This document shows, in pieces, positions 43,243 to 48,766 of a DNA stretch of 64,000 bases. Source of the DNA: an uncultured Alphaproteobacteria bacterium (GTDB taxonomy: Bacteria; Pseudomonadota; Alphaproteobacteria; RF32; CAG-239); NCBI GenBank assembly GCA_944391685.1, contig CALXUM010000003.1, positions 9,481-73,480 of the forward strand. The letters are read 5' to 3'. The notes under the pieces were generated by a model, which searched no databases, was not told the origin of the DNA, and worked only from the letters and a program-made list of their open reading frames with translations. Position 1 is the stretch's first letter; every line of letters begins with the position of its first letter. The position numbers and the translations under genes are program-made.

Positions 43243-43716
43243 ATGGCAAAAACTAAGCGAAGCGATTTTATTTCAACAGGGTTGGTGGCACAGAACAGAC
43301 GTGCACATTTTGACTATTTGATTGAAGAAAAATTCGTTGCCGGTTTGCAATTAACCGGAACGGAAGTAAAGTCTTTGCGTTTGGGACATGCCAATATTAA
43401 TGACGCTTTCGGAATTGAAAAAGACGGTGAGCTTTATATATCAAACATGTTTATTGCCGAATACAGCAACAAGGGTTATGCCTCGCACGCAGAAAAAAGA
43501 GATCGGAAATTGTTGCTTAAGCATAAGGAGATTATTGATATTATAAATGCTTTGTCACGCAAGGGTGCAACGTTGGTGGCAATTAGACTTTTTTTTGACG
43601 AACATGGCTTGGCAAAGTTAGAACTAGGATTAGGACGTGGTAAAAAGCTTTATGATAAGAGAGAGACAATCAAAAACCGCGATATTGACAGAAAAATAAG
43701 ATTGGCAGGTATTTGA
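43243..43716 (+). CDS. smpB: SsrA-binding protein
   Basis: NRRAHFDYLIEEKFVAGLQLTGTEVKSLR, NMFIAEY, RDRKLLLHK-like KHKEI, GRGKKLYDKRE. 157 aa. Confidence 0.9.
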   Translation: MAKTKRSDFISTGLVAQNRRAHFDYLIEEKFVAGLQLTGTEVKSLRLGHANINDAFGIEKDGELYISNMFIAEYSNKGYASHAEKRDRKLLLKHKEIIDIINALSRKGATLVAIRLFFDEHGLAKLELGLGRGKKLYDKRETIKNRDIDRKIRLAGI

Positions 43717-43904: not shown

Positions 43905-44876
43905 ATGTTTACTGACTACAAATCACCGCTGGGCTATGTAGCCGATGGTAAAAAGATAGACACCTATGGCGTTGACCATAGCGGATTTTCAACAAAAGAC
44001 GAGATAGAATATCAAATGGCTCGGCAAAAAAGAGAAAACAGTTTGATAAAAGGTTATAATAACCAAGGAATAACTAAAGATTACCCGCAATATGGCACTA
44101 ACTTTTGGGGCAAAGCTGATAATAACTATGGTTTTGGCAACTCAAATATTGCCGATAATATCAAAAACAAACAAAACCAAGACATAAGTTCTGCATTATA
44201 CCCAAACCAAATAGGAAATGATGCCGCAAGTTATAAATTGGCTCAGAATAATCAAGCTAATACGGTGAGTGATGCAAATGGGCAAACGCTAACAAAATAT
44301 CAAAAATTAATAGATAAACATTATAATGATATCTATAAAAATGAAGGAAATCCTGATTATGTTTATCTTGATCCTAAATATATAAGAACAATCGGGCGAG
44401 GAACAAATATTAACAATCCTAATGCGTTTAATCAAGTTAACTATAAAATAAAAAATACAAATGATTTTGCAAGTGAAAAAGAAAAGCAAGATTGTTATGA
44501 TAAATTTGAAGACTGGATTAAAAATAATAAAAGACACTCCAAAGATAAACATAATTTTAAAGCGAATTATTTTGAGGATTTTTGTAATTTGTATATAGAT
44601 CCAAATGAAGCAAAACGATTACATAATGAACATGTTGTAAAAGATATTCCTGTCATAAAAAATATAATAAAAAATTATGATGAATTAAGTTATGAAAAAC
44701 AGTTGGCAATTTTAGATATGGTTTATAATCTTGGTGCTACAGAATTTAAAAACCAATTTACAAAATTTATTGAAGCTGCAAATGCTAATTCAGAAGAAGG
44801 AATGTTAAAAGAATATCATCGAAAGGGTATTTCTGAAGACAGAAATAAATGGACAGCAGATTTATTAAAAAAATAA
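43905..44876 (+). CDS. polymorphic-toxin-like protein: conserved N-terminal module + T4-lysozyme (GH24)-like C-terminal domain
   Basis: AAGGAG SD. The N-terminal roughly 115 aa are repeated in three downstream cassettes. C-terminus: NEGNPDYVYLDPKYIRTIGRG reproduces the T4 lysozyme E-x8-D-x5-T catalytic spacing and TIG(I/R)G, and ILDMVYNLGATEFKNQFTKFIEA resembles the T4L helix [22 protein letters not shown]. Confidence 0.75.
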   Translation: MFTDYKSPLGYVADGKKIDTYGVDHSGFSTKDEIEYQMARQKRENSLIKGYNNQGITKDYPQYGTNFWGKADNNYGFGNSNIADNIKNKQNQDISSALYPNQIGNDAASYKLAQNNQANTVSDANGQTLTKYQKLIDKHYNDIYKNEGNPDYVYLDPKYIRTIGRGTNINNPNAFNQVNYKIKNTNDFASEKEKQDCYDKFEDWIKNNKRHSKDKHNFKANYFEDFCNLYIDPNEAKRLHNEHVVKDIPVIKNIIKNYDELSYEKQLAILDMVYNLGATEFKNQFTKFIEAANANSEEGMLKEYHRKGISEDRNKWTADLLKK

Positions 44877-44880
44877 TTTA

Positions 44881-44920
44881 TATAGAATAGAATGTGTTTT
44901 AAAACACATTCTATTCTATA
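44881..44920. terminator. perfect 40-nt palindrome / bidirectional terminator
   Basis: TATAGAATAGAATGTGTTTT|AAAACACATTCTATTCTATA, 20-bp arms with no loop. The right arm encodes the last codons of the minus-strand gene. Confidence 0.6.
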
Positions 44921-45354
44921 CCATAAAATTCACCACTACGTCTAAAATTGTTTTTATCATATTCAATCAATTCTACTAACCAATGATAGCTAGTGCAATA
45001 TACACTATCCAAACATTCAGAAATTTTAAATTTATTGATATTTATTTGTGTCTTTTGGGTAACAGGATTATAAAAACTGCATTTCAAAATAATATATTCT
45101 TGTTTGTTTTCCAATAAAACACAAGACTGTGTTGTCCATCCTTCTTTATGATCATCATTTTTTTTATATGTGGATGAGTTTGAAAACTTTAAACTATGTG
45201 GAGTTAAATAAGATTCTCTAGCTATTGAAGAAATTGGAATTAACGGCTTATAAAATAGTGGGTTAACAAATTTTTCTTCTTTATTTTGCGTAAATAAGCT
45301 ACAAGCGGTTGTTATTAGTAAAACAGCCATACAAGCAAACAAGACTTTTTTCAT
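44911..45354 (-). CDS. small lipoprotein, candidate immunity protein for the GH24-like toxin
   Basis: GGAG SD, MKKVLFACMAVLLITTAC lipobox. Convergent with the toxin gene. Its 5' leader is a conserved repeat shared with 46398-46889. Confidence 0.6.
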   Translation of the reverse strand: MKKVLFACMAVLLITTACSLFTQNKEEKFVNPLFYKPLIPISSIARESYLTPHSLKFSNSSTYKKNDDHKEGWTTQSCVLLENKQEYIILKCSFYNPVTQKTQININKFKISECLDSVYCTSYHWLVELIEYDKNNFRRSGEFYGIE

Positions 45355-45473
45355 CACCAAACTCCGATAAAGTTATTTACCAAAAATCTTAAACTTAAAA
45401 GTTGAAGATATTGTTAAGTCTTAAAAGAGGGGTTTTTGTAACTTTTCCACAGGTCGGAAACATTTTTACAACC
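45355..45473. repeat. shared immunity-gene leader + cassette junction repeat, copy 2
   Basis: CACCAAACTCCGATAAAGTTATTT...AAACTTAAAAGTTGAAGATATTGTTAAG...TTTTGTAACTTTTCCACAGGTC... is repeated at 46890-47008. Confidence 0.85.
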
Positions 45474-45514: not shown

Positions 45515-46360
45515 ATGGCGTTGACCATAGCGGTTTTACAACCAAAGGATGAAATAGAATATCAAATGGCTCGGCAAAAAAGAGAAAACAGTTTGATAGA
45601 AGGTTATAACAACCAAGGAATAACTAAAGACTACCCTCAATATGGTACCAACTTTTGGGGCAAGGCTGACAACAACTATGGTTTCGGCAACTCAAATATT
45701 GCCGAAAATATTAAAAACAAACAAAACCAAGATATAAGTTCCGCATTATATCCCAATCAAATAGGAAATGATGCCGCAAGCTATAAATTGGCTCAGAATA
45801 ATCAAGATAATACGTTAAATAAAACTGATTATTCTCTTTACGGAGATGGTTTCAGTAAAGAATTTATAAATGAAATGATAAACAACGAAGAATATCAAAG
45901 GGCGTTACAAGAATATGCAATTCCAAACGAAGGCGGATATGTAAATAATCCCGAAGATCCAGGAGGTGAAACTAATATGGGGATATCTAAAAGATACCAT
46001 CCGAATGAAGATATTAAAAATTTAACAAGAGAAAGAGCCAATGTATTGCTTTTTAAGGAAGTATGGAATTGGAATGGAATCAATACTTTACCTTCTGAAG
46101 TAAGAGGTTTTATATTTGATCATGGAATTAGAACAAGTCCTCAAAATGCCATTAAAACGACACATGAGGCTTTAGGTATTAATCCTACAGGGGATATTAT
46201 AGGAAAAACTACTTTGGAGCGATTAAAAGATACTGATTACAATGAGTTCCTGAATAAATATAAAAAACTTGTACATGAACAGGATAAAAAGAGAAGTGGG
46301 TATAAAGTATTTGGAAACGGTTGGGATAACCGAACTGAAGGATATCATATTTCATATTAA
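45515..46360 (+). CDS. orphan toxin cassette: truncated conserved module + GH108 muramidase-like domain + PG_binding_3-like domain
   Basis: The conserved module (KDEIEYQMARQK...AQNNQ) is roughly nine-tenths identical in DNA to 43995-44255. C-terminus NEGGYVNNPEDPGGETNMGISKRY (GH108 signature EGGY..DPGG.T..GI) and GDIIGKTTLERLK. No SD. The ATG lies in a frame created by a 1-nt indel. Confidence 0.6.
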   Translation: MALTIAVLQPKDEIEYQMARQKRENSLIEGYNNQGITKDYPQYGTNFWGKADNNYGFGNSNIAENIKNKQNQDISSALYPNQIGNDAASYKLAQNNQDNTLNKTDYSLYGDGFSKEFINEMINNEEYQRALQEYAIPNEGGYVNNPEDPGGETNMGISKRYHPNEDIKNLTRERANVLLFKEVWNWNGINTLPSEVRGFIFDHGIRTSPQNAIKTTHEALGINPTGDIIGKTTLERLKDTDYNEFLNKYKKLVHEQDKKRSGYKVFGNGWDNRTEGYHISY

Positions 46361-46397: not shown

Positions 46398-46889
46398 TTA
46401 TTTATAATCTTTAATAAAACTAAATATGCTAATTTGCTTTTCAATTTGTGATAATAATATCTCAATGTATTGTTTTATAACTTTATTAACCTGAGTATTT
46501 TTTTCTTGTTCACAAATAGTACCTGACGGAATATTGTACTTATTTAAACAATAGGCAACACCATAAACAGCAAAAGTTGATTTAACATAATTTCGATAAC
46601 TGTTTATGTTGTTTTTATAATTATAGTTATAAAAATGTTGCAAGATATTTTGTGAGAGATTATCCATACAATTTAATTGATTTTCATTTTCAACACATTG
46701 ATTTAATTTTATTTTGTATTGAAGCAGCAAAGTATAATCATCAATAATATTTTTTATTTTATCTTTGCTACTCCAATCGCTTTGAGAATAAACTTTATCA
46801 ATATCAATTCCGTGATATGTTTCCGCATGAACATTTATGCTAACCAATAGGGTGAAAGCAAATATAAAAGCAAAATGAATTTTTTTCAT
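46398..46889 (-). CDS. small secreted protein, candidate immunity protein for the GH108-like toxin
   Basis: MKKIHFAFIFAFTLLVSINVHA signal peptide. Same conserved leader and SD as 44911-45354, but an unrelated mature sequence. Confidence 0.6.
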   Translation of the reverse strand: MKKIHFAFIFAFTLLVSINVHAETYHGIDIDKVYSQSDWSSKDKIKNIIDDYTLLLQYKIKLNQCVENENQLNCMDNLSQNILQHFYNYNYKNNINSYRNYVKSTFAVYGVAYCLNKYNIPSGTICEQEKNTQVNKVIKQYIEILLSQIEKQISIFSFIKDYK

Positions 46890-47008
46890 CACCAAACTCC
46901 GATAAAGTTATTTGCTTGAGATAGTAAACTTAAAAGTTGAAGATATTGTTAAGGATGAAAAGAGAGGCTTTTGTAACTTTTCCACAGGTCTATAAAAATT
47001 TCACAACC
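46890..47008. repeat. shared immunity-gene leader + cassette junction repeat, copy 3
   Basis: See 45355-45473. Confidence 0.85.
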
Positions 47009-47699
47009 AAAGACGAGATAGAATATCAAATGGCTCGGCAAAAAAGAGAAAACAGTTTGATAGAAGGTTATAATAACCAGGGAATAACTAAAGACTATCC
47101 TTTAATCAGGCACTAACTTCTGGGGAAATCCCGACAATAACTACGGTTTCGGCAGCTCAAACATTGCCGATAATGTTAAGAATAAACAAAGATTTAAATT
47201 ACAACAAGTAAATACTATTGATTCAAAAATAGAAAATTCACGACAGCAAATTAATAATTATTTGATCCCGCAGGAAGCGTATAAAAATGCAACTTGGGGA
47301 GATAAGACAGCTCAACAGCTTAATAATTATATGCAAGCTTATGATTCATATCCTGGAGTAACAAACACTGGGGTTTTAGCTCCTTTTAATGATTTTATAA
47401 GAAATTATGAAGATATGGAAAAAAATGCATTGATTGGTTCAGATAATTTCTTTCATTGTAAAGCAAATTATGAAGCGGCTAAAAGAGGTGCTTGGGGAGA
47501 ATTGGTAGGAAAAGGAATGAGTGCGGCAAGAGAATTGTACGGTTTGGCAAAGGGAGAGCCTTTTTCGGATGTAAGGAAAGATTGGCACGCCAATCAAAGG
47601 GGATGGAACGGAGCTAAACAAGGACTATCCTTGGAGCAAGCTTGTCCAACTGATCCTAAGGAATATGTTGAAATAAAAGATTATGAAGATGTTTTTTAA
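47009..47699 (+). pseudogene. orphan toxin cassette, frameshifted: conserved module fragment + serum-amyloid-A-like C-terminal domain
   Basis: KDEIEYQMARQKRENSLIEGYNNQGITKDYP runs into a stop at 47114-47116. A +1 shift near 47100-47111 continues as TNFWGNPDNNYGFGSSNIADNVKNKQ..., in frame with track ORF 47262-47699. C-terminus IGSDNFFHCKANYEAAKRGAWGE...SAARE...D..ANQRGWNGAK aligns by eye with vertebrate SAA ([22 protein letters not shown]...SDARE...D..[9 protein letters not shown]). Confidence 0.6.
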
Positions 47700-47752
47700 T
47701 CTGTATTGACTTTAACAATCTCTATGTTTAAATTTATGTAAGGGCAAAAAAT

Positions 47753-48124
47753 ATGAAAACGGTTTTTAAGCAATTTATAAGCTGGGGTTGGATTTGTGCA
47801 AAAAAAGGATTGGTGTTGTTAATTCCTATGCTCTTTGTTGCAATGTATTTATTTGATATAACAATAATGGCAAAATATCATTATCCTGAAAATACATCAG
47901 TATTATATTTGCAGATATTAGGTGTTGTTTTTTATGTTTGTTGTATATGGTGTATTTTATTTAAGTTAAATAAATGGAATAAGGCTTTGCTTTTACTTTC
48001 TTTGCTTTTAATTATAGGGATGTTTTATTTTAACTATGATATTAAAAGAATAAAACAACATTCTGAGTGTATTGAAAATTCAAATATATTGTGTCCTGAA
48101 GGAGTAGATCTTCAAGGAGGATAA
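47753..48124 (+). CDS. 3-TM membrane protein, candidate immunity protein for the SAA-like cassette
   Basis: Three hydrophobic helices (GLVLLIPMLFVAMYLF, LQILGVVFYVCCIWCILF, ALLLLSLLLIIGMFYF), directly downstream of the SAA-like cassette. Confidence 0.5.
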   Translation: MKTVFKQFISWGWICAKKGLVLLIPMLFVAMYLFDITIMAKYHYPENTSVLYLQILGVVFYVCCIWCILFKLNKWNKALLLLSLLLIIGMFYFNYDIKRIKQHSECIENSNILCPEGVDLQGG

Positions 48125-48148: not shown

Positions 48149-48301
48149 ACAGTTTGATAGAAGGTTATAACAACCAAGGAATAACTAAAGACTACCCTTT
48201 AGTATGGAAATAACTTCTGGGGCAATTCCGATAACAACTACGGTTTCGGTAGCTCAAATATTGCCGATAATGTTAAGAATAAACAAAACCAAGATATAAA
48301 T
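48149..48301 (+). pseudogene. fourth copy of the conserved toxin module, stump only
   Basis: ...SLIEGYNNQGITKDYP, then the same type of +1 disruption as copy 3 and ...NNYGFGSSNIADNVKNKQNQDI. It ends 1 nt before the tadA stop codon. Confidence 0.6.
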
Positions 48302-48766
48302 TTAGTTTTGTGTCTTTCTTTTTTGTTGAAAAAAGTTTTTCAGCAGGGCAGAGCATTCAGCCTCCATCAGGCCGCAATAGACATTGGGGCGGTGGTGGCA
48401 TGTTGGTTGTTGATAGAATTTGACACCGCTGATAATTCCGCCTCCTTTAGCATCAGTTGCGGCAAAATATAAGTTTTCAATACGGGCAAAAGAAATGGCA
48501 GCGGCACACATGGTGCAGGGTTCTAAGGTGACATACATGTCAAAACCGCGTAAACGGTTTTGGCCGGTACGGCGGCAGGCTTGTTGAATGGCCTTTATTT
48601 CAGCGTGGGCGGTGGCATCCTCGCTGTGTTGGCTGAGGTTGTATGCCTCAGCAACGATTTCGCCGGTTATGGGATTGGTAATTACGCAACCAATGGGAAC
48701 TTCGTCTTCTTTGGCGGCGATTAAGGCAAGTTCGTAAGCTCGTTGCATATATTCAAGCGGAGACAT
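48302..48766 (-). CDS. tadA: tRNA adenosine(34) deaminase
   Basis: CDA motifs TAHAEIKAI and TLEPCTMCAAAI. 154 aa. Confidence 0.9.
   Translation of the reverse strand: MSPLEYMQRAYELALIAAKEDEVPIGCVITNPITGEIVAEAYNLSQHSEDATAHAEIKAIQQACRRTGQNRLRGFDMYVTLEPCTMCAAAISFARIENLYFAATDAKGGGIISGVKFYQQPTCHHRPNVYCGLMEAECSALLKNFFQQKRKTQN

Follow-up and report, generated by a model that had tools for sequence, protein, structure and literature searches.

What is a domain that resembles serum amyloid A (SAA) doing in the genome of an uncultured alphaproteobacterium, and is the gene that encodes it part of a toxin system? The question is raised by a 64,000-nt stretch of DNA (hereafter, the window) for which the original prediction, made from the letters alone, placed an SAA-like domain at the end of the third in a row of putative toxin cassettes. 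We find that the interval 47000–48124 is probably a disrupted (orphan or silenced) polymorphic-toxin cassette of uncultured gut/rumen Alphaproteobacteria, which would comprise a 5'-truncated N-terminal module of ~100 aa, a 1-nt insertion allele, an intact toxin tip of the bacterial SAA family (prok-SAA) and a co-directional gene for a protein with three transmembrane (TM) helices. Throughout, positions are window coordinates, C-numbers denote contigs of the same genome (1.57 Mb in 25 contigs), and residues such as H117 are numbered along the 197-aa second frame of this cassette, cassette 3. The relatives referred to below come from rumen, colon and human gut, and almost all are uncultured Alphaproteobacteria.

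Cassette 3 lies on the plus strand and is read in two frames. The first frame (47000–47116) encodes the 5'-truncated N-terminal module (FTTKDEIEYQMARQKRENSLIEGYNNQGITKDYP...) and ends ...FTTKDEIEYQMARQKRENSLIEGYNNQGITKDYPLIRH at a TAA stop at 47114–47116; the second (47106–47699) consists of 197 open codons and a stop, and carries the remainder of the module (SGTNFWGNPDNNYGFGSSNIADNVKNK, 47106–47186), a helical linker and the predicted prok-SAA toxin domain (~47289–47696). The peptide originally quoted as SAA-like is where it was said to be, since frame 2 of 46938–47699 translates as ...NYEDMEKNALIGSDNFFHCKANYEAAKRGAWGELVGKGMSAARELYGLAKGEPFSDVRKDWHANQRGWNGAKQG.... When compared with the Pfam profile PF00277, the 145-aa open reading frame (ORF) at 47262–47696 scores 61.2 bits (E 1.4e-16), twice the curated cut-off of 30.8, and the alignment spans profile positions 12–90 of 102. 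The same model gave 0 matches in 14 control genomes. A phmmer search of all PDB sequences returned only SAA proteins below E 1e-5, with human SAA1 (4ip8) at E 4e-9. The core match at 47388–47621 (plus strand) is backed by the Pfam hit, the PDB sequence matches, Foldseek and an alignment of 44 sequences of the subtype.

Structure prediction leads to the same family. An AlphaFold2 model of the 197-aa frame, built with 43 homologues, has a predicted local distance difference test score of 78.7 overall and 88–96 across the SAA domain, with predicted helices at residues 92–107, 112–126, 129–148 and 153–171, plus short C-terminal helices. With Foldseek, the seven top-ranking PDB entries are all structures of SAA1 or SAA3 (E 2e-4 to 2e-3; target TM-score 0.69–0.77; root-mean-square deviation 2.1–2.6 Å over ~92 columns), and the first non-SAA match appears only at E 1.7. 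A likeness first seen by eye is therefore borne out by profile and fold alike, and together the sequence and the model confirm the assignment of the tip to the prok-SAA family of the Lipocone superfamily, SAA-Wnt clade.

This assignment matters for the question of what the tip might do. Burroughs, Nicastro and Aravind (eLife 2025, PMC12419801) brought SAA, Wnt, TelC, VanZ and others together in one superfamily, the Lipocones, inferred an active site formed by His (H2), Glu (H3) and Asp (H4), and predicted that it attacks phosphate-linked lipid head groups. In the 44-sequence alignment, H117, E143, D159, N163 and G166 (codons at 47454, 47532, 47580, 47592 and 47601) are invariant or nearly so, and they match the Lipocone H2-His, H3-Glu and H4-Asp..Asn..Gly positions (PMC12419801). 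Also conserved are C118 and C180, the former (47457) within the PF00277 core and its partner (47643) just beyond it. The SAA-Wnt motif sNxxGR reads ANQRGW in cassette 3, with Trp in place of Arg but s, N and G unchanged; the GW variant is common to the whole subtype, and GR stands in both remaining SAA subtypes that the genome encodes.

We propose that the tip, which would be exported when in an intact context, would then attack phosphate-linked lipid head groups periplasmically, most likely those of undecaprenyl-linked cell-wall precursors. The conserved Cys pair, the soluble character of the domain by prediction (grand average of hydropathy −0.81, TM segments absent) and a partner protein whose tail is predicted to face the periplasm all fit an action in the target periplasm. 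Arguing by analogy, we give about even chances, or marginally better, to the tip being a periplasm-acting lipid-head-group esterase whose substrates would most likely be undecaprenyl-linked precursors. The template for this mechanism is TelC, the LXG toxin of the type VII secretion system of Streptococcus intermedius, which, as recounted in PMC12419801 after Whitney et al. (2017), separates undecaprenol from the diphosphate of lipid II and is held in check by the extracytoplasmic immunity protein TipC. Among the Lipocone toxins treated there, TelC alone has a measured activity, the cleavage of lipid II on the extracytoplasmic side. As far as that account goes, TelC differs from the SAA tip in belonging to another Lipocone clade, in its Gram-positive host and in its type VII delivery, while TipC is unrelated to the 3-TM protein described here. 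No sequence-level match between TelC and the SAA tip was obtained.

Vertebrate SAA, a secreted acute-phase apolipoprotein, binds lipids and retinol. The main alternative on mechanism, near the wording of the original prediction, is accordingly a tip that is toxic but non-enzymatic and that works by binding or sequestering lipids or by disturbing the membrane directly. Its fold matches retinol-bound SAA3 (6py0), its partner is an integral membrane protein, and catalysis by prok-SAA proteins is so far a prediction. Against this, polar His, Glu, Asp and Asn residues are invariant across 44 divergent homologues at the proposed Lipocone active-site positions, and TelC, the toxin of the superfamily that has been characterised by experiment, works enzymatically on lipid II (PMC12419801). 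We regard a non-enzymatic toxin as unlikely, albeit worth keeping in view. As for the membrane-directed activity foreseen for the domain, simple membrane binding fits less well than an enzymatic attack on lipid head groups from the periplasmic side, given the conservation of all predicted catalytic residues.

The similarity to animal proteins also raises the possibility that the gene is not part of a conflict system at all, and instead encodes a housekeeping envelope-lipid protein or was recently acquired from an animal host. The organism does come from animal guts, and it is in vertebrates that SAA is most familiar. Against this, the gene sits in a 4.5-kb island with a GC content of 27–33%, compared with 40–45% in the flanks, between smpB (43243–43716) and the convergent tadA (48302–48766); it is patchily distributed, with a match in 23 of the 55 other species of the genus, and multi-copy and variable inside one genome; and it is fused to a module that it has in common with peptidoglycan hydrolases. 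The domain matches vertebrate SAA1 and SAA3 (4ip8, 6pxz, 6py0) in its PF00277 family and superposable helical bundle at only ~31–34% identity over ~92 residues, and the animal proteins differ in that the carrier module, the immunity partner and the bacterial Cys pair are all absent. The published analysis, moreover, derives animal SAA from bacterial versions (PMC12419801). Taken together, these features make a housekeeping or host-derived gene extremely improbable.

One argument for a toxin cassette comes from the N-terminal module and what stands behind it. This module of ~100 aa (M..YKSPLGYVADGKKIDTYGVDHSGFSTKDEIEYQMARQKRENSLIEGYNNQGITKDYPQYGTNFWGKADNNYGFGNSNIADNIKNKQ) occurs in 12 copies in the 1.57-Mb genome, behind which are at least six kinds of tip: weakly phage-lysozyme-like, GH108, weakly SLT-like (18.9 bits, under the cut-off of 21.3), weakly DUF6973-like, a 768-aa protein, and SAA. 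The low-GC island itself holds four copies of the same 5' coding module, each with a different 3' end. A search with the module alone recovered 425 homologous protein clusters, and among the best 120 of these the payload is GH108 in 26 and PF00277 in 12. The closest homologues of the 197-aa frame (99% coverage, 53–65% identity) are single open proteins that start with the full module, and intact in-frame fusions of module and SAA are found in P0003 (256 aa), P0004, P0006, P0008 (265 aa), P0023 and P0024. As is typical of polymorphic toxins, a conserved N-terminal region is thus joined to alternative, unrelated C-terminal domains. The idea that the SAA domain occupies a slot otherwise held by cell-wall hydrolases is upheld by the GH108 and SAA payloads of the module homologues and by the intact fusions in relatives, with copies of the module carrying GH108, lysozyme-like or SAA tips; sequence comparison therefore supports the SAA-like domain as a regular payload of this putative toxin family. 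The premise that cassettes 1 and 2 both end in peptidoglycan hydrolases survives for cassette 2, with its clear GH108/endolysin tip, but in cassette 1 the match is weak and below the cut-off.

In total, the genome encodes four SAA domains of three subtypes. One of them belongs to an apparently intact gene for a 194-aa protein (C17:1333–1914, minus strand) in which SAA follows a second N-terminal module, MTNLKSHPVPTYAAYGG..., and which is followed by a gene (C17:920–1321) for a 134-aa Cys-rich protein with one TM segment. The second module (MTNLKSHPVPTYAAYGGVPTDAAYGGEPQYIATPFG...KNDAEYKKY) also heads an ORF at C21:9805–10491 (minus strand) with a weak YkuD-like (L,D-transpeptidase-like) match (20.2 bits, under the cut-off of 23.4).

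A toxin gene would be expected to travel with an immunity gene, and the ORF at 47753–48124 (plus strand), which starts 54 nt after the toxin stop, is a candidate for that role. In line with the original description of a 3-TM protein after the SAA cassette, its 123-aa product has three predicted TM segments (13–31, 50–68 and 79–97), and it is linked to the subtype elsewhere. Lys and Arg residues cluster at the N-terminus and in the loop at 72–77, and the 30-aa C-terminal tail is acidic and contains two Cys; from this distribution of charges we predict an N-in/C-out topology with the tail in the periplasm. The tail carries the motif HSxC(I/L)E....CPxG with two invariant Cys (C106 and C114). One other species of the genus (G022) has a close tip (67% identity) directly followed by a homologue of the 3-TM protein (49%), and on two unrelated contigs the same type of gene lies directly downstream of P0008 and P0021. 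Identity to the 3-TM protein of the window is given as 50–52% for the three linked loci in other genomes/contigs (L026, L027 and L029), and the four aligned 3-TM proteins have 42 invariant positions, HSxCxE....CPxG among them.

We surveyed the neighbourhoods of SAA genes for immunity-like partners at 80 loci on contigs from one genome per species, scoring 78 SAA ORFs for a same-strand ORF within 250 nt downstream. Such an ORF follows 73 of the 78, and 68 of these 73 partners have at least one TM segment, so that most of the SAA genes surveyed have an immunity-like neighbour of the kind that the original prediction asked for. The motif C.[DE]...C[RQ]..C......C, which resembles that of the four-Cys Imm-SAA family, is present in 41/73, and the tail type of the window in 11/73. 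Prok-SAA toxin tips have been described with 'TM+[TM+TM+]Imm-SAA' partners (PMC12419801). Like these, the gene in the window is directly downstream and co-directional, and the group as a whole encodes proteins with an extracytoplasmic tail that contains Cys, preceded by either one or three TM helices at the N-terminus. When the window type was compared by hhalign with the type combining three TM helices and four Cys (3TM+4-Cys), TM3 and the juxtamembrane C(L/I)(D/E) segment aligned at 94.6% probability (E 7e-8), a relation confined to TM3 and the first Cys. Unlike Imm-SAA, which has an alpha + 4-beta domain and four Cys, the partner in the window has a tail of ~30 aa with two conserved Cys, and on these comparisons it is best regarded as a shortened relative of Imm-SAA rather than a member sensu stricto. 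The 3-TM protein is therefore a candidate cognate immunity protein, which may use its short, probably disulfide-bonded tail to block the tip on the periplasmic surface of the inner membrane. As in polymorphic toxin systems, a candidate immunity gene adjoins the tip and, at the level of linkage, co-varies with it.

If the parts of a toxin cassette are present, can the cassette be expressed? Where intact copies of the module read TAC CCG CAA TAT GGC ACT AAC, cassette 3 reads TAT CCT TTA ATC AGG CAC TAA (the allele TATCCTTTAATCAGGCACTAA at 47096–47116, plus strand), which in alignment with the intact copies amounts to one extra base and four substitutions. The frameshift suspected at about 47100–47111 is thus real, with the shift window at 47106–47113, and copy 4 of the module carries the same extra base, just as had been proposed. 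Cassette 3 furthermore lacks the first ~28 residues (M..YKSPLGYVADGKKIDTYGVDHSG) of the full copies. With the 5' truncation, the frameshift and stops in both frames, the cassette is a disrupted gene, and its description as silent as written is supported. Five of the 12 modules have the frameshift allele (cassette 3, the copy-4 stump, C9:13677, C9:15058 and C17:3725), and two of these five have further lesions: the SAA copy at C9:13774 contains an in-frame TGA, and C9:15058 a TAG together with another break in the frame. The same allele is found in four independent metagenome assemblies, on which ground we rejected assembly error as its source; a degenerate 30-nt pattern with two mismatches did not find it in the 55 other species of the genus.

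Recombination offers a route by which such an allele could move. Compared with 46990–47190 of the window, a contig of ERZ17292902 (L117), one of these four assemblies, carries an identical SAA tip on a different, also frameshifted copy of the module, with the junction near AAACAAAGATTTAAA. This is a natural recombinant and direct evidence of recombination within the module. Gene conversion or duplication may have carried the allele from one module copy to another, and cassette 3, which would not be translated as a fusion, may persist as a recombination reservoir or a recent pseudogene.

The recurrence of one extra base could also be the mark of a programmed +1 ribosomal frameshift or another form of recoding, by which a functional cassette would keep toxin synthesis low and regulated. 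The maintenance of the allele in 5/12 modules and four independent assemblies speaks for this, as do three tips that are still open behind it (197, 240 and 135 codons) and the copy at C17:3603–3830, which has a start codon and a full module. The details of the site argue the other way: among the candidates UUA-A, AUC-A, AGG-C and CAC-U there is no slippery P-site codon that could re-pair in +1, a Shine-Dalgarno-like stimulator is not evident, and the position of the zero-frame stop varies among the five copies. The additional lesions in two of the five carriers and the missing first ~28 codons of the cassette 3 module are equally hard to reconcile with regulated synthesis. The traits of programmed +1 frameshifting were found neither in the five alleles inspected nor in a scan of the 55 other species, where the allele was not found, and the homologues are in one frame. 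We consider recoding very improbable here.

Alternatively, the tip might be expressed alone from the internal TTG at 47262, giving a 145-aa protein like the standalone 129-aa SAA proteins and leaving the module fragment as debris. Standalone proteins that start MP(K/R)YGDKTAKELDNY... are common, a 3-TM partner comes after each of them, and their start corresponds to the point where WGDKTAQQLNNY stands in cassette 3; the 145-aa ORF, which gene callers annotate (P0001), would contain the complete toxin domain. No purine-rich ribosome-binding site precedes TTG 47262, however, the closest homologues of this subtype are fusions to the module, and an export signal is absent. On balance, we think internal initiation has only a small chance of being correct, and we favour a cassette that is disrupted and not translated as a fusion.

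Standalone SAA proteins of 128–131 aa starting MP(K/R)YGDKTAKELDNY are also encoded at loci L054–L076 and in other related metagenome-assembled genomes. They have neither a carrier module nor a signal peptide, and a 3TM+4-Cys gene lies 9–21 nt downstream of each.

How an intact version of such a toxin would leave the cell is a separate matter. The module has no Pfam match, no PHROG match and no signal peptide. Type VI secretion was rejected as a delivery route, given that a TssC (VipB) match is absent from the genome, and so was a MuF carrier: PF04233 matches nothing in the genome, and the module matches neither PHROG nor Pfam. The genome does encode a type IV secretion system at C11:14000–46000, comprising a TrbC/VirB2 pilin, VirB4, two VirB8 paralogues, CagX/VirB9 with a SPOR domain, and a secretin; we found no link between this locus and the toxins that carry the module. 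Four very large membrane proteins of 833–1390 aa are encoded at the same locus. In addition, a phage-like element at C5:75500–90900, which shares its type with the human-gut phage contig MT835830.1, encodes a large terminase, a portal protein (phrog_12082), a major head protein, tail proteins and a lysozyme. The 768-aa protein at C17:34066–36384 (minus strand) starts with the toxin module and matches PBECR2 weakly, at 23.8 bits and thus under the cut-off; its core (residues 123–482) is 32% identical to the product of the MT835830.1 head-module gene that lies between the terminase and portal genes. A phage connection of the module is nevertheless unproven: the module is missing both from the phage gene and from C5, and the C5 element does not contain that gene.

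Several points weigh against the reading of the locus as a disrupted toxin-immunity cassette with an enzymatic tip, or at least against parts of it. Toxicity, export, enzymatic activity and neutralisation are predictions, drawn from sequence, for every prok-SAA protein, and the published classification of prok-SAA is itself computational. With Arg replaced by Trp in the sNxxGR motif, the chemistry could differ from that of other members. No recognised secretion or trafficking domain (PAAR, VgrG, LXG/WXG, MuF, RHS, TPS or a signal peptide) was found, and the 3-TM protein does not have the four conserved Cys of Imm-SAA, but conserves two in a tail of ~30 aa. As for silence, the tip is perfectly intact behind the frameshift, which leaves some room for expression; a 240-aa GH108-like tip at C17:2909–3628 is likewise intact behind the same allele, in a copy that keeps its start codon. 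Many relatives have standalone SAA proteins of 129 aa that do without the N-terminal module, and the 145-aa internal ORF might conceivably work alone. We nevertheless regard the disrupted cassette as the probable explanation of 47000–48124.

How does this cassette compare with systems that have been described? The reading of SAA tips as toxins was published in 2025, and the subfamily of cassette 3 is in the dataset of that study (PMC12419801), which holds MBO6281056.1 (...KDWHANQRGWNGAK...), MBP5399284.1 and CDB53504.1 of the same subtype and covers all three SAA subtypes of this genome. The catalogued proteins and cassette 3 belong to one family and have in common the helical cone fold, the conserved His, Glu, Asp and Asn, the C-terminal position of the tip and the membrane-anchored partner. 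They differ in the carrier, which is a module of ~100 aa here, whereas PMC12419801 lists type VI secretion, MuF, RHS and PGBD contexts, as well as in the motif (sNxxGW as opposed to sNxxGR) and in the truncation and frameshift of the cassette 3 copy. The N-terminal module, the shortened two-Cys partner, the GW variant and the frameshift allele do not appear there, as far as the text of PMC12419801 shows. The arrangement of the locus resembles the orphan-cassette arrays of Rhs, CdiA-CT and MafB systems (Zhang et al. 2012, as reported in PMC12419801) in having a full-length gene followed by 5'-truncated toxin-immunity cassettes, with a shared block of homology that permits replacement of tips by recombination. 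Judged by that report, it departs from them in the very small size of the proteins (~250–400 aa), in the lack of Rhs, filamentous-haemagglutinin or DUF1020 carriers, and in combining peptidoglycan-hydrolase cassettes that have convergent immunity genes with SAA cassettes that have co-directional ones.

With SAA-fold tips and membrane-anchored immunity partners already catalogued in 2025, the cassette alone adds little. Its value is rather as a compact test case for the prediction that proteins of the SAA fold serve as antibacterial enzymes against the lipid carriers of the envelope, a prediction that bears on the role of animal SAA in innate immunity. Together, the three SAA subtypes encoded here, every one paired with a small partner of its own, and the hydrolases beside them on the same module would make a convenient set for assays of toxicity and immunity specificity and for a search for the export route. 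A more speculative possibility, which we put forward as a long shot, is that the 1-nt allele acts as a switch, through recoding or recombination with in-frame copies, that holds the tips poised, and that the module is a trafficking handle for an rvh-like type IV secretion system or a phage-like particle. If so, one export route would serve peptidoglycan hydrolases and SAA-fold lipid-targeting toxins alike.

The remaining genes of the island complete the picture of the array. Cassette 1 (43905–44876, plus strand) is a 323-aa ORF in which a full-length N-terminal module, 98% identical to other copies, precedes a C-terminal domain with weak likeness to phage lysozymes (Phage_lysozyme, E 5e-4, 20.8 bits, under the Pfam cut-off of 22.3). 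Its candidate immunity gene is convergent (44911–45360, minus strand) and encodes a putative lipoprotein with a signal peptide, an LLITTAC lipobox and one hydrophobic segment. Cassette 2 (45515–46360, plus strand) joins a 5'-truncated module to a GH108 or endolysin-like domain (PF05838, E 1.1e-15 in Pfam; phrog_315 endolysin, E 2.4e-30 in PHROG), and the convergent gene at 46398–46895 (minus strand), its candidate immunity gene, encodes a presumably exported protein with an N-terminal signal-like hydrophobic segment and no family match in a Pfam search. Copy 4 (48149–48301, plus strand), downstream of the 3-TM gene, is a mere stump of the module, with the extra base at 48193–48222 and no payload, that ends at the stop codon of the convergent tadA.

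The two convergent genes at 44911–45360 and 46398–46895 and at least eight further sites in the genome are unrelated immunity-like genes with a common upstream leader; leader and first residues translate as ...LYRSL(V/M)MKK(V/I).... The hydrolase cassettes are thus conserved at either end and variable in between. Finally, both N-terminal modules are also present on a 5-kb entry (L120) deposited as 'UNVERIFIED: Bacteriophage sp.' (MT838567.1). Phage genes are absent from it, and we rejected its classification as a phage: it is an array of bacterial toxin/immunity cassettes, probably misfiled as viral.

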